This document shows, piece by piece, positions 11,882 through 63,784 of a stretch of 64,000 nucleotides of DNA. A program made the position numbers and the translations under genes. A model generated the notes under the pieces. That model searched no databases and was not told the DNA's origin. It saw only the letters and a program-made list of their open reading frames with translations. Location: NCBI GenBank assembly GCA_965206355.1, contig OZ242212.1, forward strand, positions 2,014,814 through 2,078,813. Reading direction: 5' to 3'. Numbering within the stretch: position 1 is the stretch's first letter; each line of letters begins with the position of its first letter. Source of the DNA: Candidatus Spongiihabitans sp. GTDB taxonomy: Bacteria; Pseudomonadota; Gammaproteobacteria; Arenicellales; Poriferihabitantaceae.

Positions 11882-11884
11882 ATT

Positions 11885-38712: not shown

Positions 38713-38896
38713 GCGTTCTGATCTTCGCCCATTAAGATTGACAGCGTTTTTTCCGAGCGCGAAGGCTCTGCAAACAACGTTGATTGACTATTGGAATAAT
38801 AGCATCAAGACCGGGCATGTCTGCGTTTGCTGGCCGACCATATCCGTACTAAACAACCTGCATCGCCCGGCATAACAGTCAAAATCATATGACAGT

Positions 38897-39035
38897 GAGA
38901 CCTTTGCACGGAAGATGGTTTCGCTTTCAGGCAAGGCAAAAACGCACGGAATGAGGGAGTTTATGCTTATAAATGACCGATTGAGTACGATTTTAACGCA
39001 GCATGCAGGTGAAATGGCTTTCGTGCAAAGGTCTC
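38897..39035 (-). mobile_element. MITE copy 6 (139 bp)
   Basis: Full termini are present, in the opposite orientation to copy 7. The flanks ACAGT / AGTAG do not form a clean 5-bp duplication. Confidence 0.85.
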
Positions 39036-39079
39036 AGTAGATTAAAAACCCTTAAATCGCTACCACGACCGCTTTATTT

Positions 39080-39105: not shown

Positions 39106-39462
39106 GGGGGTGACTGGCTTCGACGTTGGTCGCGAAACCATTGGAGCATGTCGAGGTGTAGAGTTCCTCGTAAATCCAGCTACACAACATTAGTTGCCAA
39201 CGACGACAACTACGCACTAGCCGCTTAAGCCGGTTAGTCCTTTCGCTTGGCTCGCTTTTAGGCTGAGGTTTGAAAGGTCATCTTATAAAAGCTCGCTAGT
39301 CAGTTCTGCTCGTTAGCTGACGGTTAAAACCAATCGGGCTCGCCGACCTGTTTGCTTCGTCTGCCTGCTGGCAAGTCGGTTAACTTAAAGTGCAGACTAA
39401 GCATGTAGTGCCGATGTGTGTAGGATCTGCGGACGCGGGTTCAATTCCCGCCACCTCCACCA
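39106..39462 (+). ncRNA. ssrA: transfer-messenger RNA (tmRNA)
   Basis: 5' GGGGGTGACTGGCTTCGACG. Tag reading frame at 39196-39228: GCC AAC GAC GAC AAC TAC GCA CTA GCC GCT TAA, giving ANDDNYALAA. 3' tRNA-like end GGACGCGGGTTCAATTCCCGCCACCTCCACCA. Confidence 0.9.
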
Positions 39463-46566: not shown

Positions 46567-46596
46567 TCAACAACTCCAAAGCAGCGACAGCGCTCA

Positions 46597-47835: not shown

Positions 47836-47987
47836 TAAATATTCTACCTTTTTAAGCAAGCTGTATTATACAAGACAAAATTTTTAAGAACATCGGTTCA
47901 GCGTGATTTTTTCGTAGCCGGTTTTTGTTAGTGCAGGTGATGGACTCATACACCGTATTCCTAAACTTTCGCGGATAATGATATTAT

Positions 47988-48125
47988 GAGACCTTTGCAC
48001 GAAAGCCATTCACCTGCATGCTGCGTTAAAAACGTACTCAATCGGTCATTTATAAGCATAAACTCCCTCATTCCGTGCGTTTTTGCCTTACCTGAAAGCG
48101 AAATCATCTTCCGTGCAAAGGTCTC
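47988..48125 (+). mobile_element. MITE copy 7 (138 bp)
   Basis: Full termini are present. Perfect 5-bp duplication ATTAT (47983-47987 and 48126-48130). Confidence 0.85.
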
Positions 48126-48208
48126 ATTATTGACCATAAATCAGACATGATATAAATGTAGAGGCTATACCCTTAAAAGCCTTAAACAATAACGACTGTT
48201 GACACGCG

Positions 48209-48790
48209 ATGCTCAAAAACATTAATAAAAAACGAGTTCTGCAACTCGCCTTTTTTCATATCAGCATCATCGCACTGGCAAATTACACGGTACAGTTTTC
48301 TGCAACCTTTATAGGTTATTCTTTTACTTGGGCGATGTTCGTCTTTCCACTGGTTATTCTGGCGACCGATATGACCGTGCGCTTATCCAATAAGTCCAAT
48401 GCCCGTGTTATTGTCGGCATCGCCTACATTCCGGCAATATTGATTAGTGCATGGCTGGCGAATTGGCGGATTGGTCTTGCCAGCGGTAGCGCCTATCTGG
48501 TCGGGCAATTACTGGATATTACGGTTTTTCAACGAGTACGCGAGCGCACAATATCCTGGTGGCCAGCGCCACTACTATCCACTTTTTTCGCTAACATCAT
48601 AGACACTTATACCTTCTTTTTCGCCGCCTTTTACCAATCTGCCGATGAATTTATGGCAGCAAACTGGGTCGAAGTCGCAACTGTGGATTTAGCCTTCAAA
48701 GTGGTTGTCTCTATCGTGCTGTTCCTCCCCGCTTATGGTATTTTATTGAATTTTCTGCTTCGCAAAAGTGGTGCCGAGGTTAAAAATTAG
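48209..48790 (+). CDS. yhhQ: queuosine-precursor transporter (YhhQ/DUF165 family)
   Basis: 193-aa polytopic ORF. ANYTVQF, FTWAMFVFPLVILATDMTVR and YLVGQLLDITVFQRVR match my recollection of YhhQ. Confidence 0.75.
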   Translation: MLKNINKKRVLQLAFFHISIIALANYTVQFSATFIGYSFTWAMFVFPLVILATDMTVRLSNKSNARVIVGIAYIPAILISAWLANWRIGLASGSAYLVGQLLDITVFQRVRERTISWWPAPLLSTFFANIIDTYTFFFAAFYQSADEFMAANWVEVATVDLAFKVVVSIVLFLPAYGILLNFLLRKSGAEVKN

Positions 48791-48798
48791 ATCGTAAA

Positions 48799-48999
48799 TT
48801 ACGACAAATCTTCCGTTTTGCCGTCAACAGCGGGCCAGCGCACAAACGCAAATACCCAGAGCATGATGAGATTAACAACTGGGATAAATGCCAATATCCC
48901 CCACCATTTAGATAAGCCGGTTCTGCCTATAATTTTAAAATATGGGTAAACAAGCAAACACACAAATAAAGCAATCAATATTATTGACACAATGTCCAT
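48799..48999 (-). CDS. small two-helix membrane protein (hypothetical)
   Basis: 66-aa ORF with two clear hydrophobic helices. No motif recognised. Confidence 0.35.
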   Translation of the reverse strand: MDIVSIILIALFVCLLVYPYFKIIGRTGLSKWWGILAFIPVVNLIMLWVFAFVRWPAVDGKTEDLS

Positions 49000-49158
49000 C
49001 TTACACCTCGCGATTTCAATTTGGTGGTCGAGTATAGCATTATCAATTTCTTCGTTGTGTTTTTAAGGCAAAGACCAAACAAATGGGTTAGAATAGGCGT
49101 GGTCATATCAGCGATTCATGCGCTGATAACCGATAACTAATCTATAGCGTTAAAACGT

Positions 49159-49515
49159 ATGCTGACCAATTATGTTCCGATTTTACTGTTCATCCTGATG
49201 GGCTTGGGTCTGGGTGCCGTGGCAATCGCTGTGGGTAAGGTGCTTGCTCCCAATAACCCTGACGACCAAAAACTCTCACCCTATGAATGTGGGTTTGAGG
49301 CTTTTGAGGATTCCAGAATGAAGTTTGATGTACGTTATTATCTGGTCGCGATTCTGTTTATTATTTTTGATCTTGAAATTGCGTTTCTATTTCCATGGGC
49401 GATTGTGTTGGATGAGATAGGTGTTTTCGGGTTTTGGGCAATGATGTTATTTCTTGGCATTTTGGTTATCGGCTTCATCTACGAGTGGAAAAAAGGCGCG
49501 TTGGAATGGGAGTAA
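49159..49515 (+). CDS. nuoA: NADH-quinone oxidoreductase subunit A
   Basis: [43 protein letters not shown]. Confidence 0.95.
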
Positions 49516-49521
49516 GTCAAT

Positions 49522-49998
49522 ATGGCTCTTGAAGGCAAGTTGTCGGCAGGTTTTGCTACGGCAAAACTTGATGACCTGATAAACTGGGCGCGTACCGGCT
49601 CAATGTGGCCGATGACCTTTGGTCTCGCCTGTTGTGCGGTGGAAATGATGCAAGCGGGAGCTGCACGTTATGACCTTGATCGTTTTGGCATTATATTTCG
49701 TCCCAGCCCCAGACAATCCGATGTTATGATTGTTGCTGGCACGCTGACCAATAAAATGGCACCGGCTTTACGCAAGGTTTACGATCAGATGGCAGAACCG
49801 CGTTGGGTCATTTCTATGGGTTCGTGTGCCAACGGGGGTGGCTACTACCATTATTCCTATTCCGTAGTACGCGGTTGCGATCGCATTGTGCCTGTGGATG
49901 TTTATGTACCCGGTTGCCCACCAACCGCGGAAGCCCTTATTTATGGTATTTTACAGTTGCAGAAGAAAATAAAGAAAACCAATACCATTGCCCGATAG
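49522..49998 (+). CDS. nuoB: NADH-quinone oxidoreductase subunit B
   Basis: [26 protein letters not shown] and PGCPP (N2 cluster ligands). Confidence 0.95.
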
Positions 49999-50075
49999 TC
50001 GCCATTTAATGCGCAGCAGATAACCCACTAACCGCCGTCTGCACCGCTATCAATACCTGTGCCCTACTTACAAAT

Positions 50076-50837
50076 ATGGCTACAACATGCCCACAATATA
50101 TCCGCGAGATGAATGAGTTACGATTAAGAGAAGCCTTGCCCACCCTGTTGGGCGATGTGCTGTTGTCTGATCGGCTGGAGTTTGGCGAACTGACCTGCGA
50201 AATAAAATATCAGGACATCAAAAGCGTCTGTCAAACACTGCGCGATCACCCCGACACCCAATTTGATCAGCTTATTGATTTGTGTGGCATAGATTATTCC
50301 ACCTATGCTGTCGAGGACAATACCCACGCTCATCAAAGCAGCAGTCATAAAGGTTCAATCCAAACAGAAGCAGACCAGACAGAAACAGATCAGACAAAAG
50401 CAAACCATAAAAAGGCAAAGAACCATAGTCGCTATGCGGTGGTGTATCATCTGCTGTCATTAAACCACAATTTCCGCCTGCGCTTACGCACCACATTGGA
50501 CGCTGAAAAATCAGGGGGGCAGCCAAGTACCGAATCGGTCATTGATATTTGGGCAACTGCAAATTGGTTTGAACGAGAAGCCTTTGACTTGCTGGGCATT
50601 ATGTTCACTGGACACCCCGATCTGCGGCGTTTGCTGACCGACTACGGTTTCATTGGTCATCCGTTTCGCAAGGATTTCCCCTTATTCGGTCAGGTTGAAA
50701 TGCGTTACGATGAGGAACAAGGTCGGGTCATTTATCAACCCGTGACCATAGAGGAGCGAATATTGACACCCCGAACCATCAGAAAAGACAGTTTTGTCAA
50801 GACTGCCCATAATGGCGCGGATGAGGCATCAAAATAA
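50076..50837 (+). CDS. nuoC: NADH-quinone oxidoreductase subunit C (with a low-complexity insertion)
   Basis: [41 protein letters not shown], plus an inserted His/Gln/Thr/Asp/Lys-rich segment. Confidence 0.9.
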
Positions 50838-52090
50838 TGGCAGAAATCAGAAACTATACGATGAATTTTGGGCCGCAGCACCCGGCTGCCCACGGTGTCC
50901 TGCGGGTTATTATGGAAATGGACGGAGAGGTTATTGAACGTTGCGACCCGCACATCGGGCTACTCCATCGCGCCACCGAAAAACTCGCCGAGTCCAAGCC
51001 CTATAACCAGAGCATCGGCTATATGGATCGGCTTGATTATGTGTCAATGATGTGCAATGAACACGCCTATGTGTTAGCCATTGAAAAAATGCTGGGGGTA
51101 ACGCCGCCCATTCGAGCGCAGTATATCCGCGTCCTATTTGATGAAATTACCCGTATCCTCAATCACTGTTTATGGCTTGGGGCACATGCGTTGGATGTCG
51201 GGGCAATGACGGTATTTTTATATTGTTTCCGCGAACGTGAAGATTTGATGGATTGTTATGAGGCGGTTTCTGGTGCGCGTATGCACGCGACTTATTATCG
51301 TCCGGGTGGTGTCTATCGGGATCTACCCGGGCAAATGCCGAAATATGCACCAACGCAACGTCATTCCGATGAACAAACCAAAGCACGCAATGCCGACCGC
51401 GAAGGTTCCTTACTCGATTTCATTGAAGCCTTTAGCACGCGATTTCCGCACTATGTTGACGAATATGAAACATTGTTAAGCGACAATCGTATCTGGAAAC
51501 AACGTACTGTTGATATTGGCATTGTCAGCCCGGAACGTGCTAAGGCACTGGGTTTTACCGGGCCGATGTTGCGCGGTTCTGGTGTTGAATGGGATTTGCG
51601 GAAAAAACAACCGTATGAAGTTTACGCACAGATGGATTTTGATATTCCGGTCGGCAACAACGGCGACTGTTATGATCGCTATCTGGTTCGTGTGGAAGAG
51701 ATGCGACAATCGAACCGGATTATAAAACAATGTGTGGACTGGTTACGCAAAAATCCGGGAGCGGTTATTGTTGATGACCATAAGTTGATTCCACCGTCCC
51801 GAGAAAATATGAAAGGCGATATGGAATCGCTGATTCACCATTTCAAATTGTTTACCGAAGGCTATTGTGTGCCCGCGGGAGAGGCTTATGCCGCCATTGA
51901 ACACCCGAAAGGTGAGTTCGGTATTTATCTGCTTTCCGATGGTAGCAACAAACCTTATCGGCTAAAAATTCGGGCCCCGGGCTTTCCGCATTTGGCCGCA
52001 TTGCATGAAATGTCGCAGGGGCATATGCTAGCGGATATGGTGGCCATCATCGGTTCTCAGGATATTGTTTTCGGGGAGATCGACCGCTGA
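50837..52090 (+). CDS. nuoD: NADH-quinone oxidoreductase subunit D
   Basis: [15 protein letters not shown] and a C-terminus ..[14 protein letters not shown]. Confidence 0.95.
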
Positions 52091-52557
52091 TGCTCTCCGA
52101 CGCATCTCTCGCGGCGATCGAACGGGAACTCGCCAAATACCCCGAAGACCGGCGCCAGTCGGCATTGATGGCGGCGCTGCGCATCGCTCAGGATGAACAT
52201 AACTGGTTGAGTGATGCGCTTATTGAATATGTTGCCGAGGTCATTCAGGTGGCACCGATTCGTGCTTATGAAGTCGCCACATTTTATTCGATGTATGAAC
52301 TAAAACCGGTCGGCAAACATAAAATCAATGTCTGCACCAATATTTCCTGTCTGTTGCGTGGTTGTGATGAGGTGGTCAGCCATTTACAGCATAAATTGGG
52401 TATCGGTTTTGGTGAAACAACTGCAGACGGTAAGTTTACGCTGAAAGAAGTAGAATGTCTGGCCGCCTGCGCGGGTGCGCCGATGATGCAGGTTGACCAC
52501 GACTACCACGAAAACCTCACCCCCGCGCGCATTGACGAGATTTTGGACGGGGTTTGA
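52090..52557 (+). CDS. nuoE: NADH-quinone oxidoreductase subunit E
   Basis: 2Fe-2S ligand pattern VCTNISCLLRGC ... ECLAACAGAPMMQVD. Confidence 0.95.
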   Translation: MLSDASLAAIERELAKYPEDRRQSALMAALRIAQDEHNWLSDALIEYVAEVIQVAPIRAYEVATFYSMYELKPVGKHKINVCTNISCLLRGCDEVVSHLQHKLGIGFGETTADGKFTLKEVECLAACAGAPMMQVDHDYHENLTPARIDEILDGV

Positions 52558-52613
52558 TTCGAGCAAGTATTTACAAGTATCAAATGCATTCCAACAGCCT
52601 ACGAAACTAAAAA

Positions 52614-53756
52614 ATGTCGACTGACAATAGCGCAGTATTTACGGCAATCCACACGGAATTGCTTGATGAGTACCAGCAAAACCACAACCATCCATGGGTT
52701 GTTGGTTATTCCGGCGGCAAAGATAGCACGCTGGTAGCACACCTGGTGTTCGAGATGTTATTATCCCTGCCACCAAGTATGCGAACGCGGCATGTACACA
52801 TAGTGTCCAATGACACATTGGTTGAAAGCCCGTTGGTTATTCGCCACACCACCAAAAGTTTGCGTGAAATCGGTACAGCAGCAACAGTATTTCGGTTACC
52901 TGTCAAAACCCATATGACACGCCCGGATGCCAATCAGTCTTTTTGGGTAAATTTGATTGGGCGAGGATATCCATCACCAAACCGATCATTCCGATGGTGC
53001 ACTGACCGTATGAAAATTCAACCCACCAGCCGATATATCAAAGAGCGCATCAATGTCTCCGGTGAAGTGATACTGCTGTTGGGCGTACGACGCTCCGAAA
53101 GTGCGTCTCGCAGCAGGTCGGTGGCGCGCTACGATAATGGTGGGCGACTTAATCCACATGGTGATCTGGCCAAATGCATGGTATTTCGTCCCATCGTTGA
53201 TCTTTCGACCGATGAGGTATGGGAGTACTTGGCGAACAACGATTCACCGTGGGGCGGTTCGCATGCTAATTTAATCAAACTATACCGCGACGCTGGCGGC
53301 GGCGAGTGCCCGGTGGTCACGCAAAAATCGGACACCCCTTCATGCGGGACACGGTCATCGCGATTTGGTTGCTGGACATGCACGGTGGTGGATAAAGATC
53401 GCAGCCTTGCGGGGTTCGTAGAAGCCGGGTTTGGTGAGTTTGAACCGCTTATGGATTTTCGCGATTGGCTGGTGTCTATTCGCAACGATCCGAACAGGCG
53501 ACAAGCCCGCAGGCGAAACGGGCGCATTACAATGACCCGAGATGGTACTTTTGTGCCGGGCCCCTTTACAATCCAAGCCCGGTCTGAAATTATGGGGCGC
53601 CTGCAAGCATTACAAACCGAAACCAATCAAACATTGATTAGCGATGATGAAATTGATGCCATCCATAAAATTTGGGTCGAGGATATCGTTCGATCAACCG
53701 ACACACAGCCCATGCAAGTGTGTGTAATCAACAAGAGAAAAACAAATGTCGCATAA
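52614..53756 (+). CDS. dndC: DndC-like PAPS-reductase/PP-loop ATP pyrophosphatase (DNA sulfur-modification type)
   Basis: 380-aa ORF with PP-loop VVGYSGGKDSTL, RWCTDRMKIQP, and cysteine cluster GECPVVTQKSDTPSCGTRSSRFGCWTCT typical of DndC. It is shorter than the DndC proteins I recall. Confidence 0.75.
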   Translation: MSTDNSAVFTAIHTELLDEYQQNHNHPWVVGYSGGKDSTLVAHLVFEMLLSLPPSMRTRHVHIVSNDTLVESPLVIRHTTKSLREIGTAATVFRLPVKTHMTRPDANQSFWVNLIGRGYPSPNRSFRWCTDRMKIQPTSRYIKERINVSGEVILLLGVRRSESASRSRSVARYDNGGRLNPHGDLAKCMVFRPIVDLSTDEVWEYLANNDSPWGGSHANLIKLYRDAGGGECPVVTQKSDTPSCGTRSSRFGCWTCTVVDKDRSLAGFVEAGFGEFEPLMDFRDWLVSIRNDPNRRQARRRNGRITMTRDGTFVPGPFTIQARSEIMGRLQALQTETNQTLISDDEIDAIHKIWVEDIVRSTDTQPMQVCVINKRKTNVA

Positions 53757-53943
53757 TCACATCGTGCTGTTGAATAATCCGGAAAGCCGCGAAATGGTCG
53801 AGAGATTGTGCGCAGAACATGGGTTTGAATTTACGGTGTTTGAGGAGTTGATTGAGGCCGAGATGAAGCAAATCGGCAAACTAAAAAAGCATGGACTGTG
53901 GTTAGATTTTGACGAGATACTTGACCGTATTGAAATAGAATAA
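53746..53943 (+). CDS. 65-aa acidic hypothetical protein, translationally coupled to the DndC-like gene
   Basis: The ATG overlaps the upstream stop by 11 nt (ATGTCGCATAA). The frame is closed 18 nt upstream (TAA at 53725-53727), so it is not a frameshifted DndC C-terminus. No motif recognised. Confidence 0.5.
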   Translation: MSHNHIVLLNNPESREMVERLCAEHGFEFTVFEELIEAEMKQIGKLKKHGLWLDFDEILDRIEIE

Positions 53944-53950
53944 TGCTGCC

Positions 53951-56014
53951 ATGTATATTCGCCGAATAGAACTAAATAACTGGAAAGCATACCAATCTGC
54001 TGTTTTTGAATTTCCAGCACCCTCCGACAATCAAAATATTGTTTTGATTGGGGCACGCAATGGTTATGGGAAGACCAGTTTGTTTCAAGCAATTTTACTT
54101 GGCATGTATGGCAAGGACGGCTTTGATTTGATAAAACGATCGCTGTTGTCTGGCAGGGATGGACAATACAGTTCGTACTCCAACTTTCTCAAAAGTGTTT
54201 TGCATAAAAATGCCATTGGTGAAGGGGCGAGATCATGTGCGATTAAAATTAAATTTGTTAATGGCAGCCAAACTCCGATAGAGATTGACAGGCGTTGGTA
54301 TTTTAGTTCTGCGGGTGTTCATCTTGCGAAAGACGATCAGGTGGACATATTCGAATCCGATAACCGTACCCCAGTGGGACCAGCGAATAAAAATGAAGAT
54401 CCTATCGTTTGGAAGCGTAATTATATCGAACGCGCTCTGCTTCCTCCTAATCTGTCGTCATTCTTTTTGTTTGATGGTGAAAAAGCAAGCATTTTTGCTG
54501 ACCACGATATGGCAGTACAAGTCAAAATGGGGATCACTGGATTGCTTGGCATCCCCATCATTCAAGAACTAGCGGAAGATTTACGATCATATGTAATCGC
54601 TCGTAAGCCGAAAGCCCCGAATGTGTCAGACGATACTATTGCGGAGTCAGAAAATACTCGCACCCAACTAAAAAAACAGTTGGACCAACAAGAAAAGCTT
54701 TGGAATGATGCCCAATGTGAATTAACACAACTCAAACACGACAGAGACAGTATTTTGCAAGAACTTATGTCCTTTGGTGTTGACTCACAAACGAACATCC
54801 GCCAAAAAACAGAACAACTTTCTAAGTTGGAAAATGAAATAGCCAATAAAGAAGAACAACTATCCAATTTGCTCGCCACCGACATAGCGCTTGCATTAGC
54901 GGGAAGGAGCTTGCGGAAAAATCTGGCTACGCGACTAAAAAGCGAAAGCACGCTCAACAAATGGGAAGCCGGCAAACAACAAGGAGATAGCCGGATAGAT
55001 GCTTTCATTGACGCGCTGAGCAAAGGAATGACTGAAATTGCGCCGCCTATCTATGCTAGTCAGCGCACACGTATTTTGGAAATCGCCCGCGCAGCATGGG
55101 AGAAATTGTGGTTTCCTCCGCCTGAAAATTGCGCTCGTGACTATTTGCATCCCTATTTAACTGAAGGGGAACGGGGAACGGTCACACAACACTTGGAAAA
55201 ATTAAATACGGTTAGCGCACCGCAGATCATATCATTGCTCGCGTCTATCAAGTCCGCCGGAATAAAACAGAAGGAGTTGAGGGCTGAAGTCAACCGTCTT
55301 GCCGCAATAGAACCTCATTTACAAGAAAAGCGAAATCTGCTGACTCCTCTGAACAAGAATATCGACGCTCTGAATCAACAAATTGGAGAAATACGTCGTA
55401 AAAAAACCTCATTGGACGCAAAAATTAACAGCAAGAATGAGGAGTTGGGTCGACTCTACACAAAAAAAGACAGTGCAAAGCCGCATGCTCGGAGAAATTA
55501 TCGTGCTACTAAAGTAGCAAACATGATCGATGCAATTGTGAACGATGCTGTGCCCAGTCAGATAAATGCGATCGCCGGAGCAATGACAAGCGCGTATAAG
55601 GATATTGCACACAAAGGACTTGTGGAAAAAATTGATATTGATGACCAATGCGGTGTCAAATTGCTGAATGGAGATGGGGAGGATGTACGCGATCTTGATA
55701 CATCAGCTGGTGAGAAACAAATATTCACTCAAGCGTTAATTTCTGCGATTTCGGCGGTATCGGGTCGTGCCTTCCCGATGGTCATAGACACGCCGCTTGG
55801 CAGACTAGATAAACGGCACCGAGTGGGCGTCCTACGACATTTGGTAAAACCACACAGACAAGTGATACTGCTGTCTACTGACACCGAAGTAGTCCAGGAG
55901 TACTTGTGTGCAATTGAATCACAAATTCAGAAAAAGTACTTGATTAACCACGATGTTGTGACTGGTACATCAACCGCAACGGTCGGGTATTTTGACTCGG
56001 AGGTGACGGAATGA
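53951..56014 (+). CDS. dndD: DndD-like SMC/ABC-type ATPase
   Basis: 687-aa ORF with Walker A at the extreme N-terminus (LIGARNGYGKTSLFQAI), a long central coiled coil, signature SAGEKQ and Walker B/D-loop PMVIDTPLGRLD. Confidence 0.75.
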   Translation: MYIRRIELNNWKAYQSAVFEFPAPSDNQNIVLIGARNGYGKTSLFQAILLGMYGKDGFDLIKRSLLSGRDGQYSSYSNFLKSVLHKNAIGEGARSCAIKIKFVNGSQTPIEIDRRWYFSSAGVHLAKDDQVDIFESDNRTPVGPANKNEDPIVWKRNYIERALLPPNLSSFFLFDGEKASIFADHDMAVQVKMGITGLLGIPIIQELAEDLRSYVIARKPKAPNVSDDTIAESENTRTQLKKQLDQQEKLWNDAQCELTQLKHDRDSILQELMSFGVDSQTNIRQKTEQLSKLENEIANKEEQLSNLLATDIALALAGRSLRKNLATRLKSESTLNKWEAGKQQGDSRIDAFIDALSKGMTEIAPPIYASQRTRILEIARAAWEKLWFPPPENCARDYLHPYLTEGERGTVTQHLEKLNTVSAPQIISLLASIKSAGIKQKELRAEVNRLAAIEPHLQEKRNLLTPLNKNIDALNQQIGEIRRKKTSLDAKINSKNEELGRLYTKKDSAKPHARRNYRATKVANMIDAIVNDAVPSQINAIAGAMTSAYKDIAHKGLVEKIDIDDQCGVKLLNGDGEDVRDLDTSAGEKQIFTQALISAISAVSGRAFPMVIDTPLGRLDKRHRVGVLRHLVKPHRQVILLSTDTEVVQEYLCAIESQIQKKYLINHDVVTGTSTATVGYFDSEVTE

Positions 56015-57570
56015 GTATTTCAATGGTGGAGGTTACTGGTGCGAATTTTCGCACCGATGGTAAAAGCGACAACACCAACACCCAGTTCATGGATCACCTT
56101 GGGATGCGGTTGCGTTATCTACCCGCCCGCCTTGCCATTTCCAGATCACTATCAATAGTTTCTCCAGTGACGACATTTAGCGGGAAAAACGATGGAAAGA
56201 CCATCAAAGGCGATACCCTGTTCGGTAACGATGCAACCCTACTGGTTTGGGTTTCACTTATCGTGGAACATGCCGGTGATCGCGATATGGACATAAAAAA
56301 ATTAATTGATTTAGTCGCCGGACATTGGCGCAGGGGCATCGACATCCTTGATAAGGAATGGAAACAGTCTAACGACATTGAGGAATTTGTAGCTAGATTA
56401 GTGGATGTAGCAGAGTTGCCGCGCGATGGTGGGCATACAACCGTTGTCCCTGACAACTACGGCGATGCGATTGCTCTTCCTGCATCAAACATCACCGTGC
56501 CTATCGGCGAAGTTTCCAAAGACACTACAACCAATAAAAACGTGTTGTGGAATTTGAACGGGGCGGGTGGGTCGCCGCATAGCGCGATTATGGGCGGGGT
56601 CGGTTCGGGCAAAACCCGAACGGCGGTTGCCATGCTGAAAAGCATTCGCGAACAAACACAGGTGCCTTTAATCGCCTTTGACTTTAAGGGTGACCTGGGC
56701 ACCGATGACAATGGCAATGGCTATCACATTGAGAAAATTTTTAATGCGGACATTTCTGCACCGCCACGACGACCCATACCATTGAATGTTTTTTTATTAA
56801 ATTCAAGAGATGACATAGATATCGCAGAAGCAGCGTCACGTTTCCGTGATGCATTTGATCACTTAAAAGTCGGGCAATTTGGCGCGAAACAGAGGGACGC
56901 AATACACGAAGCTGCAACAGCCGCATTAACAACACACGAAGTGTGCGAGATCACACATATACGAGATGCGTTAGAGAGAGTGTACGAAGAACGGGAATAC
57001 AAAGAAGACGGTGCCATTTCCACGATGCGAGACATTTGCCGCTTCCCATTGTTTGAGCCTAGATTTACTCCTTCAGCTTTTTTTACAAATAATCATTTAA
57101 TTAAACTGCCGCCTAATATAGCGGGAGACAACCGAAAATTGATTGTCAATCTAGTATTAAACGCTTTGGATCAATACCTTAACAGTCTAGCAGATTCTCA
57201 AACCAATGATGACGGAGCACGAGCATTGCGAGTTTTGTGTATGGTGGACGAAGCGCATCAAATTTTAGGACAAAAACTACCCTCTCTTTCCAATCTTATG
57301 CGCATGAGCAGATCCAAAGGTGGCGCAATTATGCTGGTTTCGCAATCACCGGATGATTTTTCTGGTGTGGAAGATGATTTCTTGAACGAGATGGGATTGA
57401 TCGTCGCCTTCAACACCAACGCTTCGCCACGAAATGTAGGTCGTATTCTTGGCGGAAAGGCTAAATTAACTGGATTGAAAACCGGACAGTGTTTTGTAAA
57501 ACGACGGGAAGACTCGAATAGTAAACGAGTAGTCGCGTGGTCAAACGAAAACCGATCTGATACAGAATAA
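56011..57570 (+). CDS. DndE-like N-terminal domain fused to a HerA/FtsK-type P-loop ATPase (DndEi-like)
   Basis: 519-aa ORF whose start overlaps the DndD-like stop (ATGA). Residues ~10-130 (LGMRLRYLPARLAISRSLS...DGKTIKGDTLFG...GHWRRGIDIL) resemble DndE. It has Walker A GGVGSGKTRTA, Walker B LCMVDEAHQIL and a downstream LVSQSPDDF. Confidence 0.6.
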   Translation: MSISMVEVTGANFRTDGKSDNTNTQFMDHLGMRLRYLPARLAISRSLSIVSPVTTFSGKNDGKTIKGDTLFGNDATLLVWVSLIVEHAGDRDMDIKKLIDLVAGHWRRGIDILDKEWKQSNDIEEFVARLVDVAELPRDGGHTTVVPDNYGDAIALPASNITVPIGEVSKDTTTNKNVLWNLNGAGGSPHSAIMGGVGSGKTRTAVAMLKSIREQTQVPLIAFDFKGDLGTDDNGNGYHIEKIFNADISAPPRRPIPLNVFLLNSRDDIDIAEAASRFRDAFDHLKVGQFGAKQRDAIHEAATAALTTHEVCEITHIRDALERVYEEREYKEDGAISTMRDICRFPLFEPRFTPSAFFTNNHLIKLPPNIAGDNRKLIVNLVLNALDQYLNSLADSQTNDDGARALRVLCMVDEAHQILGQKLPSLSNLMRMSRSKGGAIMLVSQSPDDFSGVEDDFLNEMGLIVAFNTNASPRNVGRILGGKAKLTGLKTGQCFVKRREDSNSKRVVAWSNENRSDTE

Positions 57571-57588
57571 CTGCGACCGACTGGCCAA

Positions 57589-58995
57589 ATGAACACTTTA
57601 AACACCATGCGCATCTGCCACGGCGTTTGTCTGCCCACCGAGCATGACCGTTGCTGGACGCTGGCAAGCTATAAAGCGAATGGCGGATATCATGCCCTTG
57701 AAAAAATCCTCAAAGAGCATATCCCGGCAACCGACATCAATGAAGCCTTAAAAGAAGCCAACCTGCGCGGGCGTGGTGGTGCCGGTTTTCCGGTTGGCGT
57801 TAAATGGAGCTTTATGCCACGTGATGCCGATGTGCAAAAATATGTGGTGTGTAATTCTGACGAGGGCGAGCCCGGAACCTGTAAAGATCGTGACATCCTG
57901 CGCTACAACCCCCACGCGCTCATCGAAGGCATGGCCATCGGCGGCTACGCGATGGGTGCGACGGTGGGCTACAACTACATCCGCGGCGAGTTTTGGGAGC
58001 CCTATCAGCAGATGGAAGCCGCCATGGCTGAAGCCTACGACACCGGCTTGTTGGGTAAAAACTTGCTCGGTTCAGGGTTTGATTTTGACCTGTACAGTCA
58101 TTTGGGGGCGGGGGCCTATATTTGTGGAGAAGAAACTGCCCTGCTTAATTCTCTGGAAGGCTTAAAAGGGCAACCCCGCTTCAAACCGCCTTTCCCCGCT
58201 ACCTTCGGCTTATACGGTAAGCCGACCACCATTAACAATACCGAATCTTTTGCATCCATTCCAGCTATTTTGCGTGGTAACGGCAAATGGATGGATAGCC
58301 AGTGGTTCAAGGGTCTGGGTGTCGAAAACTCAGGCGGTGTGAAAATATTTTCGGTGACTGGTCATGTTGAATTACCGGGAAACTATGAAATCAAGATGGG
58401 TACGCCATTTAGTGAACTGTTGCAGATGGCAGGCGGGGTCTGGAAAAATCGAAAATTGAAGGCGGTTATCCCCGGCGGCTCTTCAGTACCAGTGATGCCT
58501 GCCGAAAATATTATGCAAGCGAATATGGATTATGATTCGCTACAAAAAAACGGTTCTGCGGTCGGTGCCGGTTCGGTTATTGTCATGGATGAAAACACCG
58601 ATATGGTCAAAGTGTTAGAACGCATTTCCTATTTTTATTTTGAAGAATCATGTGGGCAATGTACGCCGTGTCGGGAAGGCACTGGCTGGCTATATCGTAT
58701 CATTAGACGTATTAATAATGGACAAGGGGTGCGCTCAGATCTGGATACCTTGCTGGATGTTGCCAATCGCATTGAAGGGCGCACCATCTGTGCATTAGGG
58801 GATGCCGCCGCTTGGCCAGTGCAGAGTTTTCTGAAACATTTCCGCCATGAGTTTGAAGCGAAGATAAGCAAAAGCCTGCACCCTGTCGTTAATAATCAGT
58901 CCCATGACCCTGCCGATGACCATACCGACAATGTCGCGTCAGACGACCACCTTGCCGAGCAAGCGCAATCTCGGGCAGAGCAAATAACCATATGA
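57589..58995 (+). CDS. nuoF: NADH-quinone oxidoreductase subunit F
   Basis: [25 protein letters not shown], and N3 cluster motif [12 protein letters not shown]; ~40-aa C-terminal extension. Confidence 0.95.
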
Positions 58996-61526
58996 GTAGC
59001 ATTACCATAGAAGTGGACGGCAAAGCGTTGCAAGCGCAGGCTGGCGAAATGCTGATTGTTGTTACCGACAGAAACGCTATTGAGATTCCCCGATTCTGCT
59101 ATCACGAAAAATTGTCGGTCGCTGCCAACTGTCGCATGTGTCTGGTTGAAGTGGAAAAAGCACCCAAACCGCTACCCGCCTGCGCTACGCCGGTGATGGA
59201 TGGCATGAAAGTGTTTACCCGTTCACAATACGCCCGCGCAGCACAACAGGGCACGATGGAATTTCTGCTCATCAATCATCCGCTTGATTGCCCGGTTTGT
59301 GATCAGGGCGGGGAATGCCCGTTACAGGATCAGGCCATGGCTTATGGCAACGATGGCTCCAGATTTCTGGAGCGAAAACGCAGTGTGCCCAGTCACCACA
59401 TCGGACCACTGATTGCCACCGAGATGACCCGCTGTATTCACTGTACCCGCTGTGTGCGCTTTGGTGATGAAGTGGCAGGGATGACTGAAATGGGTGCGCC
59501 CGGTCGGGGTGAGTTTATGAGCATCAGCACATTTCTTAATCATTCGATAGATTCGGAAGTTTCCGGCAACATGATCGATTTATGCCCGGTGGGCGCACTA
59601 ACCTCCAAGCCCTACCGCTTCGCCGCGCGCTCGTGGGAACTGCAAAATCATCGCGGCATCAGCCCGCACGACTGCGTCGGCGCCAACCTTAACATCCAAA
59701 CCTTGCGTGATCGAGTTGAACGGGTATTGCCGATTGACAATCATGAGATTAACCAATGCTGGCTCGCCGACCGAGATCGTTATAGTTATGAAGCCGTCAA
59801 CAGCGATCAGCGCTTAACCGAACCGATGATTAAAACCGATGGGGTATGGTGCGAAGTGGACTGGGAAACGGCACTGCTTCACACCGCTAGCGCGATAACA
59901 ACCGTCCGTGATTGTGCCCCTGGTAGCGAGCTCGGCGGCTTAGCCGCAGCGACCTCGACTTTAGAAGAATTTTATTTATTGCAGAAACTGATGCGTGCTC
60001 TGGGTAGTGAGAATGTCGATCACCGCTTACAGCAATGCGACTTCAGAGACGATAGCATTGCGCCGCACTTCCCATTGTCGGAAGTGCCGATTCAACAATA
60101 CAATGATCTGGCATCGGTCCTATTGGTCGGCTCCAATATCCGCAAAGAACAACCACTACTCGCATTACGACTGCGCGATGGTTGCAACAACAGGGGTACG
60201 AAAATAAGCGTGATCAATCCTATTGCGTTTGATTTTAATTTTGATACGGTTGCAACATACGCCGGTGCTGGCAGGCAAATGCTTGAGAGTTTAGCCACAC
60301 TGGCGTGCTGTGTGGCAGAACTGAAATCTGCCACCTCGCCGACTCCCCTGCCCGATGAAATCCAGCGTCTGGCTGGCAACAAAGCAAGTCGCTCCGCAAC
60401 CGTTATGTCCAAAACAGCCACGCATCTTGTTGATGGTGCTGAAAACACCTTGATTATTATTGGCGGTATTGCGCAACAACATGCGGATGCCAGCCTGCTC
60501 AAGGCAATTTGCCATTGGATTTGCCAAGCTAGCGGATGCAAATTGGCAGTTTTACCTGTCGGCAACAGTGCGGCTGCTTGGATAGCGCATTGCATACCCG
60601 GCAATCAGGGTATGAATGCCGGGCAAATGCTCGGGCAAACAAGCCGTTATGTGCCGAAACATCGGTCTGCCGAAAAAACGGCTGTCGGACTACGCGCCAT
60701 GATACTCCTTGCGACTGAACCTGAGCTGGATAGTATAGAAGGCCAGGCCGCATTGACTGCCCTGCACAATGCCAAATTGGTGGTGCAGATTAGCGCATTC
60801 AAAAGCGCATCGGTTATGCAATATGCCGATGTCTTATTGCCTATGGCCGCTTTTACCGAGTCGGCAGGCACCTTTATCAACTGCGAAGGTCGCAGACAAC
60901 GTGCAGAAGTGGCAGCCTCTCCACAAGGTCAAGCGCGCCCGGCATGGAAAATTCTGCGGGTATTAGCTAACTTTCTTGAACTTGAGGGTTTTGATTATAT
61001 TACGCTGGATGACGTTAGTGCGGAGATCAACGCGCAGATTAGTGATGTTGCAGGCGAGGAACCGCCTACAAACCGTTGCACACAAGACCCGGTGCAATTT
61101 GCCAAATGGGACACCCTTAAATCCGCACCTAACAATCCCGACAGCAATTGCTTGCAACGCATTGCCGATATGCCGATGTACCGCGGCGACAGCACGCTGC
61201 GCCACGCCCATGCACTCCAGCAAACTGCCGACAATCCGCCAGTAGCCGCCAATCTCAACCCGGCCACTATGGCAAAATTGAATCTCAATGCAGGCGACAA
61301 GGTGCGGGTACGCCACATATCCGAACAGCCCGGGCAAACAGAAGCCGCAGACAGCACGTTGCCGCTACGGCTAAACAGTGGCATACCCGATGACTGTGTT
61401 TATATTCCCGCAGGATTCAGCGAAAGCGCAACTCTGGGCCGACATGCTATGCTCTGCTTGCTACCCTGTCAAGATGATACGCAGAGAAATGGTACGCACA
61501 GCGAACAGGTAGCGACCGAACCGTGA
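58992..61526 (+). CDS. nuoG: NADH-quinone oxidoreductase subunit G
   Basis: N-terminal 2Fe-2S/4Fe-4S motifs ([46 protein letters not shown]) and a molybdopterin-like domain. Confidence 0.95.
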
Positions 61527-62572
61527 TATACACATTTTATCTTTCTGCGACTGAATGGCTACCTCAGGTAATCCGGGAAAGCCTCTGGATTGTCATTAAA
61601 ATTATGGCAATTTTGTTACCGCTGATGCTGAGTGTCGCCTATTTCACCTTTGCCGAACGTAAGCTGATTGGTTATATGCAAACCCGAGTCGGACCCAATC
61701 GGGTCGGACCGAAAGGCTGGCTTCAGCCGATTGCCGATGCCTTGAAATTACTGATGAAGGAAATCATCCTGCCGAGTAAATCCAATAAGTTTCTGTTTTT
61801 GATTGCGCCGATTCTCTCGCTGGCACCAGCGCTCGCCGCCTGGGCAGTGATTCCATTTACCGATTTTCTGGTGCTGGCGGATATTGATGCCAGCTTACTG
61901 TATGTTCTTGCGCTCACATCTATGGGCGTGTACGGGGTCATTATTGCTGGCTGGGCTTCAAATTCAAAATACGCTTTTCTGGGGGCGATGCGCTCGGCGG
62001 CACAAATTGTCGCTTATGAAATTGCCATGGGTTTTGCGCTGGTCGGAGTGTTAATGGTAGCAGGTAGTCTCAACTTGCGGGAGATTGTGCTTCATCAGGC
62101 AGGTGGCTTCTGGCACTGGTACTTTTTACCCTTGTTTCCTTTGTTTATTGTGTATTTTATTTCAGGTGTGGCAGAAACCAACCGTGCGCCGTTTGATGTT
62201 GCCGAAGGTGAGTCAGAAATCGTTGCTGGTTTTCATGTTGAATATTCGGGCATGGCGTTTGCAGTGTTCTTTTTAGCCGAATATGCCAACATGATATTGA
62301 TTGCTGCCCTGACCGTGCTGATGTTTTTAGGCGGCTGGTTACCTCCCGTTGAGTCGGCACCGTTTATCTGGATGCCACCGTTATTTTGGTTTGCCGTTAA
62401 AACCGCTTTCGTTTCTTTTTTCTTTTTATGGCTCAGAGCCACTTTCCCGCGCTACCGCTATGATCAAATTATGCGCTTGGGTTGGAAAGTGTTAATCCCG
62501 GTAACGCTGGTTTGGATTGTGGTCATCGGTCTGGGTAAGTTTTACACACCTTTTGGCAGCATATTTCAATAA
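61523..62572 (+). CDS. nuoH: NADH-quinone oxidoreductase subunit H
   Basis: [21 protein letters not shown] and [27 protein letters not shown]. Confidence 0.95.
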
Positions 62573-62591
62573 CCGATATAGGCACGACATT

Positions 62592-63083
62592 ATGGGGCTG
62601 GACATTAAACAACTGTATAAAACCTTTTCACTACAAGAGTTAAGAAAGGGACTCTGGGTGACCGGTCGTCAATTGTTACACAAAAAAACGACCATTATGT
62701 ATCCCGAAGAAAAAACCCCGAAATCACCTCGCTTTCGGGGACTGCACGCATTGCGGCGTTATGCCAACGGTGAAGAGCGTTGCATTGCCTGTAAATTGTG
62801 TGAAGTCGTTTGTCCGGCTTTGGCGATCACCATTGACTCCGAAGAACGCGAAGATGGTAGCCGTCGGACAACACGGTATGATATTGATTTGTTCATGTGT
62901 GTTTATTGCGGTTTTTGTGAAGAAGCCTGTCCGGTTGATGCGATCGTAATGACCGATATTCACGAATTCCACATGGAAGAAAATAATGAACGCATTATTG
63001 ACAAACAACATTTGCTTGAACTAGGTGATAAGTATGAAAAGGACATTGCAGCAGCACGTAAACAAGATGCCCCTTACCGATAA
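62592..63083 (+). CDS. nuoI: NADH-quinone oxidoreductase subunit I
   Basis: Two ferredoxin motifs, [12 protein letters not shown] and [12 protein letters not shown]. The MGLDIKQ start at 62592 is preferred over the ORF start at 62517, which overlaps nuoH. Confidence 0.9.
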
Positions 63084-63130
63084 CCTGCCCGATAACCTAT
63101 CATACCTGACCAACAACCTATCCGATATCA

Positions 63131-63784
63131 ATGACATTTCTACAACTTAGCTTTTATGGGTTCAGTGCGCTACTGATTTTTGCCGCCATCATGGTAGTGC
63201 TAATTCGTAACCCGGTGCAATCTGCCCTGTTTCTGGTGCTGGCATTTTTCAGTGCTGCCTGTGTCTGGATCACATTACAAGCCGAATTTTTAGCCATCGT
63301 GCTGGTTCTGGTCTATGTCGGCGCAGTCATGGTCTTGTTTTTGTTTGTGGTGATGATGCTAGACATTGATCTGGCGAAATTACGCGCTGGATTTACCCGT
63401 TATCTACCAGTTGGCGGTTTAATCGCGATATTGCTGGTTGTGGAAATTGCACTGGTCATGCACGCTTCTTTTGATGCCGGAAAATACAGCAATCCTACCG
63501 TATATGGGATTGAATACAGCAATACCAAAGTCCTAGGGCGGCAGATTTATACCGATTATGTGTATGCTTTTGAAATTGCCGCTTTCATTTTACTGGTTGC
63601 CATCATTGCCGCTATTGCCGTAACCATGCGGCGGCGACCCAATAGTAAATACAACAGTCCGGCAGCGCAGGTGCAAGTCAAGCGCGAACATCGCTTGCGC
63701 ATTGTCAGTATGGATGCCGTACCCACTGCACCAAGCGCCAGCGCATCAACACCAGCAACAACAACCGAAGAGGACGAATCATGA
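63131..63784 (+). CDS. nuoJ: NADH-quinone oxidoreductase subunit J
   Basis: Polytopic membrane ORF ([20 protein letters not shown]) with a Ser/Thr/Ala-rich C-terminal tail. Confidence 0.9.

Follow-up and report, generated by a model that had tools for sequence, protein, structure and literature searches.

A Dnd-type module with a DndE::HerA/FtsK fusion between nuoE and nuoF of a gammaproteobacterial complex I operon, probably a horizontally acquired passenger

Why should a four-gene Dnd-type module lie between nuoE and nuoF, inside the operon for respiratory complex I? The question is raised by a 64-kb stretch of DNA (the window) from an uncultured, symbiont-like gammaproteobacterium whose nearest named relative is the sponge symbiont Candidatus Spongiihabitans (Arenicellales). 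In the list of open reading frames (ORFs) of the window, the module and the nuo genes are all encoded on the + strand, with nuoA to nuoE together spanning 49159-52557. Of the four ORFs of the module, ORF1 starts 56 nt after nuoE and overlaps ORF2 by 11 nt; ORF3 follows ORF2 after 7 nt and shares a 4-nt ATGA overlap with ORF4, which ends 18 nt before nuoF (Table 1). This list reproduced all coordinates and spacings given for the nuo genes and the four ORFs in a preliminary description of the locus. The motifs quoted there were all found in the cassette proteins, which also contain GGVGSGKT at residue 195 and LCMVDE at residue 409.

Table 1. Features around the nuoE-nuoF junction, with positions counted from the first nucleotide of the window
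Feature	Position	Strand	Basis or remark
nuoA, nuoB, nuoC, nuoD	49159..52090	+	ORF list; upstream part of complex I operon
nuoE, 155 aa	52090..52557	+	PF01257 E 4e-57; TIGR01958 above cutoff
nuoE-ORF1 spacer, 56 nt	52558..52613	+	aligns with L001 spacer; travels with cassette
ORF1, 380 aa, DndC-type PP-loop ATP pyrophosphatase/sulfurtransferase	52614..53756	+	TIGR03183
ORF2, 65 aa, conserved cassette partner	53746..53943	+	family alignment
ORF3, 687 aa, DndD	53951..56014	+	TIGR03185
ORF4, 519 aa, DndE domain plus HerA/FtsK-type P-loop ATPase	56011..57570	+	Pfam, AF2 model, fold search
ORF4-nuoF spacer, 18 nt	57571..57588	+	sequence
nuoF, 468 aa	57589..58995	+	TIGR01959 621 bits
nuoG, nuoH, nuoI, nuoJ	58992..63784	+	ORF list; downstream operon genes
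Tract differing from cassette-free L019, read as imported	52431..57654	+	blastn and mismatch list

Profile searches upheld the Dnd assignment, with ORF1 scoring over the DndC cutoff and ORF3 over the DndD cutoff. ORF1 reached 390.7 bits against the DndC equivalog TIGR03183 (cutoff, 290.4), covering model positions 9 to 373 of 447. Its best PADLOC model was DndC (E = 5e-124), whereas the SspD model gave just E = 5.5e-10. The protein has both the PP-loop ATP pyrophosphatase fold and the conserved cysteine cluster of DndC, with SGGKDS at residue 33, RWCTDRMK at residue 127, and GCWTC at residue 252. It lacks the C-terminal ~75 to 100 residues of canonical DndC, and its PRK06850 score is under the cutoff (436 versus 536). 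The dN/dS ratio of ORF1 is 0.06 to 0.11.

ORF2 was initially taken for an orphan, a view that does not stand. It is a member of a conserved family of small cassette proteins, which was found in at least 60 of the 88 additional loci retrieved and which sits between dndC and dndD across Alpha- and Gammaproteobacteria. The family comprises 403 clusters at 90% identity and 107 representatives at 50% identity; these representatives are short save for a few longer ones, and none of the 107 is a DndC fusion. In the family alignment, Cys22 is invariant and the C terminus carries the motif FD(D/E)ILDxI. Ten or 11 of 16 members weakly match the C-terminal region of the DndC model, and the dN/dS ratio of ORF2 is 0.13 to 0.20. 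ORF2 may act as an adaptor or a sulfur relay. An ORF2-type partner does not figure in the discussion in the available text of PMC10853773.

ORF3 supplies the DndD component. It scored 258.1 bits against TIGR03185 (cutoff, 245.85), with residues 1 to 681 aligned to the full length of the model (positions 1 to 650), and it carries a Walker A-type RNGYGKTS motif, the signature SAGEKQ at residue 585, and a Walker B/D-loop VIDTP at residue 611. The top PADLOC model for ORF3 is labeled PbeC (E = 7e-241), which seems to be a matter of how that model is named. No C.C motif (CxC zinc hook) was found in ORF3, the cysteines of which are at residues 96, 256, 394, 567, and 653.

The description of ORF4 as a DndE domain joined to a P-loop ATPase was supported by Pfam, by a homologue search, and by fold matching. 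The DndE family PF08870 scored 20.3 bits on ORF4 itself (cutoff, 25; E = 7e-4) and matched 34 of 34 ORF4 homologues (best E = 4e-9). The TIGR03184 equivalog cutoff was not reached (17.6 versus 71.85), and a PDB profile search with ORF4 did not recover DndE. An AF2 model of ORF4 (pLDDT, 84.7) contains two strand-helix-helix units within residues 11 to 118. The N-terminal part of ORF4 is a DndE double ribbon-helix-helix domain, fused rather than free-standing. Pfam matches on the ATPase part include PF01935 and PF10412 (DUF87, HerA_C, TrwB_AAD_bind). The top PDB fold match was the DndH C-domain 7es4 (E = 1e-16; TM, 0.78 on the target), HerA 4d2i was also among the matches (E = 1e-11), and ORF4 matches the PADLOC DndH and mad8 models. 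Thus, DndE and a HerA/FtsK ATPase occupy one polypeptide beside a DndD-related ABC ATPase, the genes for ORF3 and ORF4 overlapping by 4 nt.

All four reading frames are intact, the catalytic motifs are all present, and dN/dS against three relatives is 0.06 to 0.21 across the four genes. These data establish the cassette genes as intact and under purifying selection. The impression that the DndD-like gene is AT-rich holds only modestly: the GC content is 0.44 in ORF3 and 0.46 in ORF4, compared with 0.43 to 0.53 in the nuo genes and 0.469 in the whole window.

The statement that dndA, dndB, and any nuclease or restriction partner are missing from the window agrees with both tblastn and a survey of the large ORFs. 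With Escherichia coli IscS as the query, no IscS-like gene was found in the 64-kb window of this 2.36-Mb genome. No DndB-like gene was found in the window either, ORF4 being followed after 18 nt by nuoF, and the partner proteins that flank the cassette elsewhere were not detectable in the window by tblastn. Neither the cassette nor the window's large ORFs include a nuclease or another effector; the ten largest of the remaining ORFs encode housekeeping or otherwise unrelated proteins (RadA-like, DnaB, pyruvate dehydrogenase components, ClpA, an IS transposase, an autotransporter, and a cyclase/AAA/TPR protein). A DndB regulator occurs in about half of Dnd systems and so is not strictly defining. 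Among the other cassette loci, 22 have a DndB-family gene after the cassette. IscS can replace DndA as the sulfur donor, according to the available text of PMC10853773.

Positions 48700-59200 were scanned for expression signals. Terminator-like hits numbered 17 against 11.9 ± 3.6 in shuffled sequence, which is not clearly above chance. Promoter-like hits numbered 15 against 17.6 ± 4.0, also not above chance, in a scan for the sigma-70-type consensus alone, which other internal promoters could escape. On the + strand, neither edge of the cassette had a terminator-like or promoter-like hit in this interval, confirming that the edges lack a terminator. The scan and the ORF list therefore agree with the initial picture of a same-strand module nested in the nuo operon. 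Barring an unrecognised promoter, nuoG to nuoJ would have to be transcribed through the cassette.

Comparison with an empty site had been proposed for the locus, and a cassette-free nuoE-nuoF junction was found in a near-identical contig, L019. By blastn, L019 is 99.4 to 99.9% identical to the window outside 52431-57654 (99.4% over 45536-52523 and 99.92% over 57655-62823), and in it nuoE overlaps nuoF by 4 nt. Mismatches begin at 52431 in nuoE and identity returns at 57655 in nuoF, so that the differing tract comprises 127 nt of the nuoE 3' end, the cassette, and 66 nt of the nuoF 5' end. The C terminus of the window's NuoE (...ENLTPARIDEILDGV) resembles that of the cassette-bearing contigs L001 and L003 and not that of L019, and the N terminus of NuoF is closer to L003 than to L019. 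We read the tract as a single recombination import or, seen from L019, a single replacement. The cassette may be a gain of the window strain; alternatively, L019 may have taken up an empty allele in its place. The diverged nuoE 3' and nuoF 5' ends, being like those of L001 and L003, suggest that the cassette has spread by homologous recombination in which nuo sequences served as arms. In comparison with L001, synonymous divergence (pS) is 0.47 to 0.66 in the cassette and 0.70 to 0.83 in nuoD and nuoE; therefore, the cassette shares a more recent common ancestor with L001 than the host genes do.

L001 and L003, which are more distantly related, likewise have the cassette between nuoE and nuoF. 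The arrangement is thus common to three independent assemblies, and L003 spans both junctions. Another copy, in L002, lies outside nuo beside fragments of an IS91-family Y2 transposase, and it retains stubs of ~40 nt of the nuoE 3' end and ~18 nt of the nuoF 5' end. The window's nuoE-ORF1 spacer is 89% identical over 46 nt to the stub upstream of the L002 copy. Our survey of relatives was a small convenience sample that covered eleven nuo operons and, apart from the window, 88 cassette loci. The four-gene order is kept in these 88 loci, as far as the contigs reach, down to 39% ORF4 identity; 86 lie outside nuo, and the same cassette is found on the megaplasmid of Methylorubrum extorquens AM1. 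At the nuoB/C, D/E, or I/J junctions, five of the eleven related nuo operons (L003, L092, L093, L094, and L096) contain genes for DNA methyltransferases, which belong to several unrelated families. In addition, L001 and L003 have a GIY-YIG gene at nuoB/C.

Together, these findings make it probable that the cassette is an intact, horizontally acquired DndE::HerA/FtsK core module, a promoterless passenger at the nuoE-nuoF junction that has spread through recombination in nuo. We infer that the module phosphorothioates DNA and is co-transcribed with nuo. A housekeeping cysteine desulfurase encoded elsewhere would provide persulfide sulfur, which DndC, with its PP-loop and cysteine cluster, would activate and transfer. 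The DndD ABC ATPase and the DndE ribbon-helix-helix domain would find and hold target sites, while the fused HerA/FtsK ring would drive the complex along duplex DNA. The predicted outcome is a set of sequence-specific phosphorothioate marks on host DNA. Expressed by nuo read-through, the cassette would place a constitutive mark free of DndB control. Homologous recombination, with the conserved nuoE and nuoF as arms, would move the cassette among related strains, and its imprecise deletion or silencing would be expected to harm nuoF to nuoN.

The position of the cassette is thus best explained by mobility and persistence rather than by the biology of respiration. The preliminary description had offered two possibilities, a hitch-hiker and a redox link, of which the former is favored, because methyltransferases without redox chemistry fill other nuo junctions in relatives and because the cassette varies between strains and brings the ends of nuo genes along with it. 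Under the redox link, phosphorothioate sulfur would serve as an antioxidant or redox buffer, co-regulated with the main respiratory source of reactive oxygen. The literature contains proposals that phosphorothioate DNA acts as an antioxidant, co-orientation and the absent terminator imply co-expression with nuo, and the same junction is occupied in three related genomes. We nevertheless consider this link improbable, given that the N6 and N4 DNA methyltransferases located at three further junctions, like the GIY-YIG gene, have no redox chemistry, that a 99.5% identical strain (L019) does without the cassette, and that nearly all of the other cassette loci are outside nuo. An assembly chimera or a decaying pseudogene remnant has the origin of the window in a single assembly as its sole formal ground. 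The independently assembled L001 and L003 have the same arrangement, which rules out a chimera, and the intact, selected frames leave this explanation effectively refuted.

The same four genes might instead form a self-contained defense that marks self and acts on invaders without a nuclease, with DndD-DndE::HerA/FtsK loading on unmodified incoming DNA and blocking its replication or packaging, as has been proposed for Pbe-type and "HerA/FtsK capture" systems. The nearest fold to the ORF4 ATPase is the C-domain of the restriction component DndH, the PADLOC matches of ORF4 (DndH and mad8) agree with this, and the top model for ORF3 bears the PbeC label. HerA/FtsK domains have also been argued, in the available text of PMC10853773, to help defense systems engage invader DNA. 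We judge a self-contained defense unlikely, since the cassette and the window contain no nuclease or other effector and ORF3 is missing the CxC hook that defines PbeC. DndB-family genes and other partners often lie beside the cassette elsewhere, a sign that the four genes by themselves form only a modification core. A different chemistry, in which the truncated DndC-like enzyme and ORF2 make or process another thio-modification or an adenylated intermediate, would account for the missing canonical C-terminal region of ORF1 with its low PRK06850 score and for the presence of ORF2, which this family has in addition and in which one cysteine is invariant. Other modification enzymes can be recruited by DndDE cores, as the available text of PMC10853773 has it. 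This chemistry has little probability in our view: ORF1 scores 100 bits over the equivalog cutoff for DndC and retains both the PP-loop and the cysteine motifs, and the weak match of ORF2 to the missing DndC C terminus is consistent with one enzyme split in two.

The genomic context of the passenger module appears to be undescribed. A search of the searchable literature found no description of strain-variable DNA-modification cargo at the junctions of a conserved essential operon. The interest lies in this context, with flanking core-gene sequence as the transfer vehicle for cargo, and not in the module, which adds little to a subtype already catalogued by comparative genomics. It is quite possible, and we propose it tentatively, that the complex I operon in this sponge-symbiont-related lineage serves promoterless DNA-modification genes as a safe harbor and as a platform for exchange. 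If so, it would house a phosphorothioation module at nuoE/F and, at nuoB/C, nuoD/E, and nuoI/J, solitary methyltransferases from several unrelated families. Read-through of an operon that cannot be silenced would express the cargo, essential neighbors would guard it against imprecise deletion, and the conserved nuo genes would pass it between diverged strains by homologous recombination. The epigenome of these bacteria would then be tied to a core respiratory operon and reshuffled by way of it. If it holds across relatives, such a pattern would bear on how symbiont genomes come to retain selfish or epigenetic genes and on the limits that operon architecture sets to the loss of these genes. The window strain and L019 form a natural pair for testing a phosphorothioation module without restriction or regulator genes, and M. 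extorquens AM1 offers a tractable model for the DndE::HerA subtype and its 65-aa partner.

Among known systems, SspABCD was rejected on the basis of the SspD and DndC scores of ORF1 (E = 5.5e-10 versus 5e-124) and the lack of an Orc/Cdc6-type ATPase (SspC). Like the cassette, PbeABCD and other CxC-ABC ATPase systems combine an ABC ATPase and a DndE-like protein, and PbeC is the top PADLOC model of ORF3; they differ in the CxC zinc hook, absent from ORF3, and in the DndC that is present here. PbeABCD was rejected, as the cassette and the large ORFs of the window have no HKD nuclease-SF2 helicase (PbeA) and no disordered PbeB, and ORF3 has no CxC. The canonical DndABCDE systems of Streptomyces lividans, Salmonella Cerro 87, and E. 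coli B7A share the DndC and DndD equivalogs and the DndE domain. Unlike them, the cassette has no dndA or dndB and no dndFGH nearby, its DndC is ~75 to 100 residues shorter and followed by a separate 65-aa gene, and its DndE is fused to a motor ATPase. The cassette type is already known, namely, as the DndE::HerA/FtsK subtype, and we know of no biochemical characterization of that subtype.

DndE fused to HerA/FtsK beside a DndD-related ABC ATPase was described by Rakesh, Aravind and Krishnan (NAR 2024; PMC10853773). As far as the available text of that paper goes, its "clade-3 HerA/FtsK" context resembles the present locus in the architecture of ORF4, the adjacent DndD-clade ATPase, the upstream DndC, and an ATPase akin to the DndH C-domain. 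The module here differs from that context in consisting of four core genes without a DndB-family gene or partner and in lying inside an essential respiratory operon, the transcription of which it apparently uses. The strain-variable cassette also invites comparison with extra genes in other genomes. The nuo/nqo operons of Alphaproteobacteria (Paracoccus and Rhodobacter) contain extra, unrelated same-strand reading frames between complex I genes; to our knowledge, these are not DNA-modification genes and are not strain-variable cargo. Defense and modification cargo at core-gene hotspots is exchanged by homologous recombination in the flanks. In contrast to such general hotspots, the cargo here has no promoter or terminator, and the site lies within one essential operon, at junctions that are a few nucleotides long.

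The interval between nuoE and nuoF is occupied by four ORFs on the same strand, and the ORF list reproduced the layout of the preliminary description exactly. Both flanking genes are unambiguous, with NuoE matching PF01257 (E = 4e-57) and NuoF matching TIGR01959 (621 bits). There are 56 nt between nuoE and ORF1 and 18 nt between ORF4 and nuoF; within the cassette, ORF1 and ORF2 overlap by 11 nt, ORF2 and ORF3 are 7 nt apart, and ORF3 and ORF4 share a 4-nt ATGA overlap. Consensus scans found no terminator-like or promoter-like site on the plus strand at the cassette edges and no excess of either in the scanned region, in agreement with the earlier reading that no terminator lies there. An Rfam scan of the window found nothing in the cassette; the sole family match was a tmRNA gene at 39106-39462 (RF00023, 217 bits). 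The DndD-like gene had been judged more AT-rich than the nuo genes. Its GC content is 0.44 (ORF4, 0.46; nuo genes, 0.43 to 0.53; window, 0.469), but the cassette is just slightly AT-richer than its surroundings. The codon usage correlation with the nuo set is somewhat lower for the cassette, at 0.40 to 0.59 versus 0.68 to 0.76.

Coordinates of the cassette, of genes inserted at nuo junctions, and of a repeated element. L001 and L003 are cassette-bearing relatives, L002 is a cassette copy outside nuo, and L092, L093, L094, and L096 are nuo operons of related gammaproteobacteria.
Feature	Locus	Coordinates	Strand	Remark
nuoA-E	window	49159-52557	+	
ORF1 (DndC)	window	52614-53756	+	380 aa
ORF2	window	53746-53943	+	65 aa
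ORF3 (DndD-clade)	window	53951-56014	+	687 aa
ORF4 (DndE + HerA/FtsK)	window	56011-57570	+	519 aa
nuoF	window	57589-58995	+	nuoG-J downstream
Dnd cassette	window, L001, L003			nuoE/F
Methyltransferases, N6/N4	L003	16923-18613	same strand	nuoI/J
Methyltransferases, N6/N4	L092	6548-9094	same strand	nuoI/J; two genes
Methyltransferases, N6/N4	L093	13288-14942	same strand	nuoI/J
N6_Mtase/Eco57I-type methyltransferase	L094	5568-7121	same strand	nuoD/E
Methyltransferases, three in one operon	L096	3192-4847, 6912-8507, 14383-15864	same strand	nuoB/C (methyltransferase), nuoD/E (N6_Mtase/Eco57I-type), nuoI/J (N6/N4)
GIY-YIG protein + glyoxalase-family gene	L001	3066-4128		nuoB/C
GIY-YIG protein + glyoxalase-family gene	L003	1958-3020		nuoB/C
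nuoE/nuoF stubs bordering cassette	L002	6440-6504, 11550-11585		
140-nt element copies	window	47987-48126; 23618-23757; 38896-39036; 5776-5914; 14184-14346; 26769-26867; 11884-11974		

Profile searches bore out the assignment of ORF1 to DndC and of ORF3 to DndD, both of which exceeded the equivalog cutoffs. ORF1 scored 390.7 bits against TIGR03183 (cutoff, 290.4) and matched the PADLOC DndC model with an E value of 5e-124. Since its match spans only positions 9 to 373 of the 447 in the DndC model, the canonical C-terminal region of DndC is missing. ORF3 matched TIGR03185 over its full length (258.1 bits; cutoff, 245.85). Its best PADLOC model is nevertheless PDLC02736, which is labeled PbeC (E = 7e-241, versus 8e-93 at best for DndD models). 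According to Rakesh, Aravind and Krishnan (PMC10853773), the defining feature of PbeC is a CxC zinc hook. No C.C motif occurs anywhere in the ORF3 sequence; because the defining hook is absent, PbeC was rejected and ORF3 was assigned to the DndD clade. Automated defense annotation could mislabel the cassette as Pbe via PDLC02736.

ORF4 had been described as a DndE-like domain fused to a P-loop ATPase, and Pfam matches, an AlphaFold2 model, and a fold match all support this. Its N-terminal part matches DndE weakly (PF08870, E = 7e-4) and its C-terminal part gives HerA/FtsK-type matches in Pfam, while PF08870 matches all 34 of the aligned ORF4 homologues (best E = 4e-9). The AlphaFold2 model (pLDDT, 84.7) contains two strand-helix-helix units and, after them, a P-loop domain. 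The closest fold to it in the PDB is that of the DndH C-domain (7es4; E = 1e-16), with HerA, VirB4, and TrwB ranking lower. Searches of solved structures by sequence returned nothing for DndC and only Rad50 heads for ORF3, and the ORF4 profile search of solved structures did not recover DndE. Every catalytic motif of ORF1, ORF3, and ORF4 is intact, and dN/dS values of the cassette genes are 0.06 to 0.21. These data show that the four genes are intact and under purifying selection.

ORF2 had been called an orphan, a view that did not hold: the same small gene separates dndC from dndD in at least 60 of the other cassette loci fetched (88 in all), and its family comprises 403 clusters at 90% identity. 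The alignment contains an invariant cysteine and the C-terminal motif FD(D/E)ILDxI, and dN/dS is 0.13 to 0.20. We rejected the possibility that ORF1 and ORF2 form a frameshifted pseudogene, since the two-gene layout recurs in those loci and purifying selection acts on both genes. A TusA-like sulfur carrier was not supported, since the Pfam TusA score is below the cutoff (20.3 versus 28.6 bits) and the AlphaFold2 model, itself of low confidence (pLDDT, 62), is all-helical. A Pup-like match (E = 0.07) was taken as chance. Ten or 11 of 16 ORF2 family members weakly match the C-terminal region of PADLOC DndC models (E = 0.001 to 0.1). That ORF2 could be a detached DndC C terminus is thus weakly suggested, as a lead and not a finding. 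An exhaustive search of 1.84 billion representatives with an ORF2 profile yielded no DndC fusion, almost all matches being stand-alone proteins of about 65 aa.

The cassette is strain-variable. L019, a contig found via a NuoF at least 90% identical to that of the window, is 99.44% identical to the window over 45536-52523 and 99.92% identical over 57655-62823, yet the cassette is absent and nuoE overlaps nuoF by 4 nt. An empty nuoE-nuoF site, which the preliminary description had proposed to seek in close genomes, therefore exists, and the comparison rules out an assembly artifact. The same four genes lie between nuoE and nuoF in two metagenomic contigs, L001 and L003, with ORF4 identities to the window of 75% and 64%, respectively. 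NuoB and NuoD of L001 and L003 are 95% and 88% identical to those of the window, and L003 continues into nuoF-J. NuoC of L001 (228 aa) and L003 (220 aa) is shorter than the 253-aa window protein, with about 53% identity to it; window NuoC contains a low-complexity insert at about 50325-50430 that is common to L019.

The difference between the window and L019 is not a clean insertion. Mismatches start within nuoE at 52431, and identity returns within nuoF at 57655. The C terminus of window NuoE (ENLTPARIDEILDGV) resembles those of L001 and L003, and the N terminus of window NuoF resembles that of L003, both unlike L019. Since these ends match those of cassette-bearing relatives, the cassette moves with the adjoining nuo gene ends, a pattern characteristic of allelic replacement through homologous recombination. 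Between the window and L001, synonymous divergence is lower in the cassette (pS, 0.47 to 0.66) than in nuoD and nuoE (0.70 to 0.83), so that the cassette is younger than the host split. The polymorphism may reflect either a gain in the window or a loss in L019. In nuoD, 12 mismatches to L019 are concentrated in the 43 nt at 50941-50983, most of them 3 nt apart, and the remainder of the gene is nearly identical; a short patch of gene conversion, distinct from the cassette tract, would account for this. The window strain and L019 form a natural near-identical pair with and without the cassette that can be used for testing.

The 88 other loci comprise 15 from species-representative genomes, 72 from metagenomes, and the Methylorubrum extorquens AM1 megaplasmid. 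They are mostly from Alphaproteobacteria, plus one Candidatus Spongiihabitans chromosome, and the ORF4 family is large (at least 677 clusters). Gene order is kept wherever the contig reaches, down to 39% ORF4 identity, and at least 86 of the 88 loci lie outside nuo. The closest of the copies found outside nuo, L002, retains about 40 nt of the nuoE 3' end and about 18 nt of the nuoF 5' end at its borders and is directly downstream of frameshifted IS91-family (Y2_Tnp) transposase fragments (L002 5640-6123). The L002 copy was evidently moved out of a nuo operon. Frequent extra partners elsewhere are a DndB-family gene with a small protein encoded directly before it, of two types (13 and 9 loci), and a convergent membrane-anchored SAM methyltransferase (13 loci). 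No sequence like these partners was found across the whole 64-kb window, confirming the reported absence of dndB, so the window copy is a stripped-down core. The Candidatus Spongiihabitans chromosome (L013 6519-11506) also has a core-only four-gene cassette, on one strand, flanked by genes for an MlrC-like metallopeptidase and a sulfatase and without DndB or a nuclease. In M. extorquens AM1, the four-gene cassette is located at 8001-12941 of the fetched locus (NC_012811.1, about 1013899-1018839), with identities to the window of 68% (ORF1), 44% (ORF2), 43% (ORF3), and 53% (ORF4). M. extorquens AM1 would be a tractable species in which to test this Dnd subtype.

NuoF relatives at 80 to 86% identity include those of Candidatus Spongiihabitans (Arenicellales, Ca. 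Poriferihabitaceae) and gammaproteobacterial assemblies, the 86% match being to a cluster that includes Candidatus Spongiihabitans proteins. Among 11 nuo operons of this group, window included, the cassette recurs at nuoE/F and modification genes recur at other nuo junctions. No cargo was found in nuo of L019 (visible to nuoI only) or of three further relatives (L097, L098, and L099). The methyltransferases belong to several unrelated families, which indicates multiple independent acquisitions. A tie between phosphorothioate chemistry and respiration could be invoked to explain the nuo location, but the presence of DNA methyltransferases at several nuo junctions of relatives speaks against it. 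The comparison argues instead that the persistence and spread of DNA-modification genes in this lineage account for the location. More speculatively, intercistronic insertions may follow a homing-endonuclease-like route, with GIY-YIG-type endonucleases helping the original insertions. The GIY-YIG protein between nuoB and nuoC has 197 aa and a catalytic-domain match just above the cutoff (E = 7e-5). In L003 and L093, a conserved 222-aa protein without a Pfam match follows the methyltransferase, and nuoC and nuoD of L003 are separated by an SDH-protease/NfeD-like gene plus a 67-aa ORF.

The window also contains at least seven copies of a 140-nt element that is bounded by perfect terminal inverted repeats (TGAGACCTTTGCACG...) and folds as a long hairpin (-39.6 kcal/mol). 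Its distribution is polymorphic relative to the 99.5% identical L019, where a further copy lies at 2825-2965. An 18-nt match to the element end at 22763-22780, just upstream of an IS transposase gene, suggests that the element is a MITE derived from that IS. The intact DDE transposase gene (DUF772 and DDE_Tnp_1) lies at 22861-24003, and one element copy falls within these coordinates. On the minus strand, 33067-36318 encodes a 1,083-aa protein of unusual architecture, in which a sterile alpha motif (SAM) domain of eukaryotic type occurs together with an adenylate/guanylate cyclase domain, an AAA_16 ATPase, and TPR repeats.

Judging from the protein families, a housekeeping cysteine desulfurase would donate sulfur, DndC would catalyze its transfer, DndD and the DndE domain would recognize target sites, and the HerA/FtsK ring would provide translocation. 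Expression would occur by nuo read-through and transfer by homologous recombination. A search of open-access literature turned up nothing relevant on nuo operons that contain Dnd or DNA methyltransferase genes; the genomic arrangement is unusual and apparently undescribed. The biochemistry, in contrast, is predicted to be ordinary in type. PMC10853773 already describes the fusion of DndE with a HerA/FtsK domain next to a DndD-related ATPase, and the cassette shares both that ORF4 architecture and that neighboring ATPase, which identifies it as a member of a known Dnd subtype.
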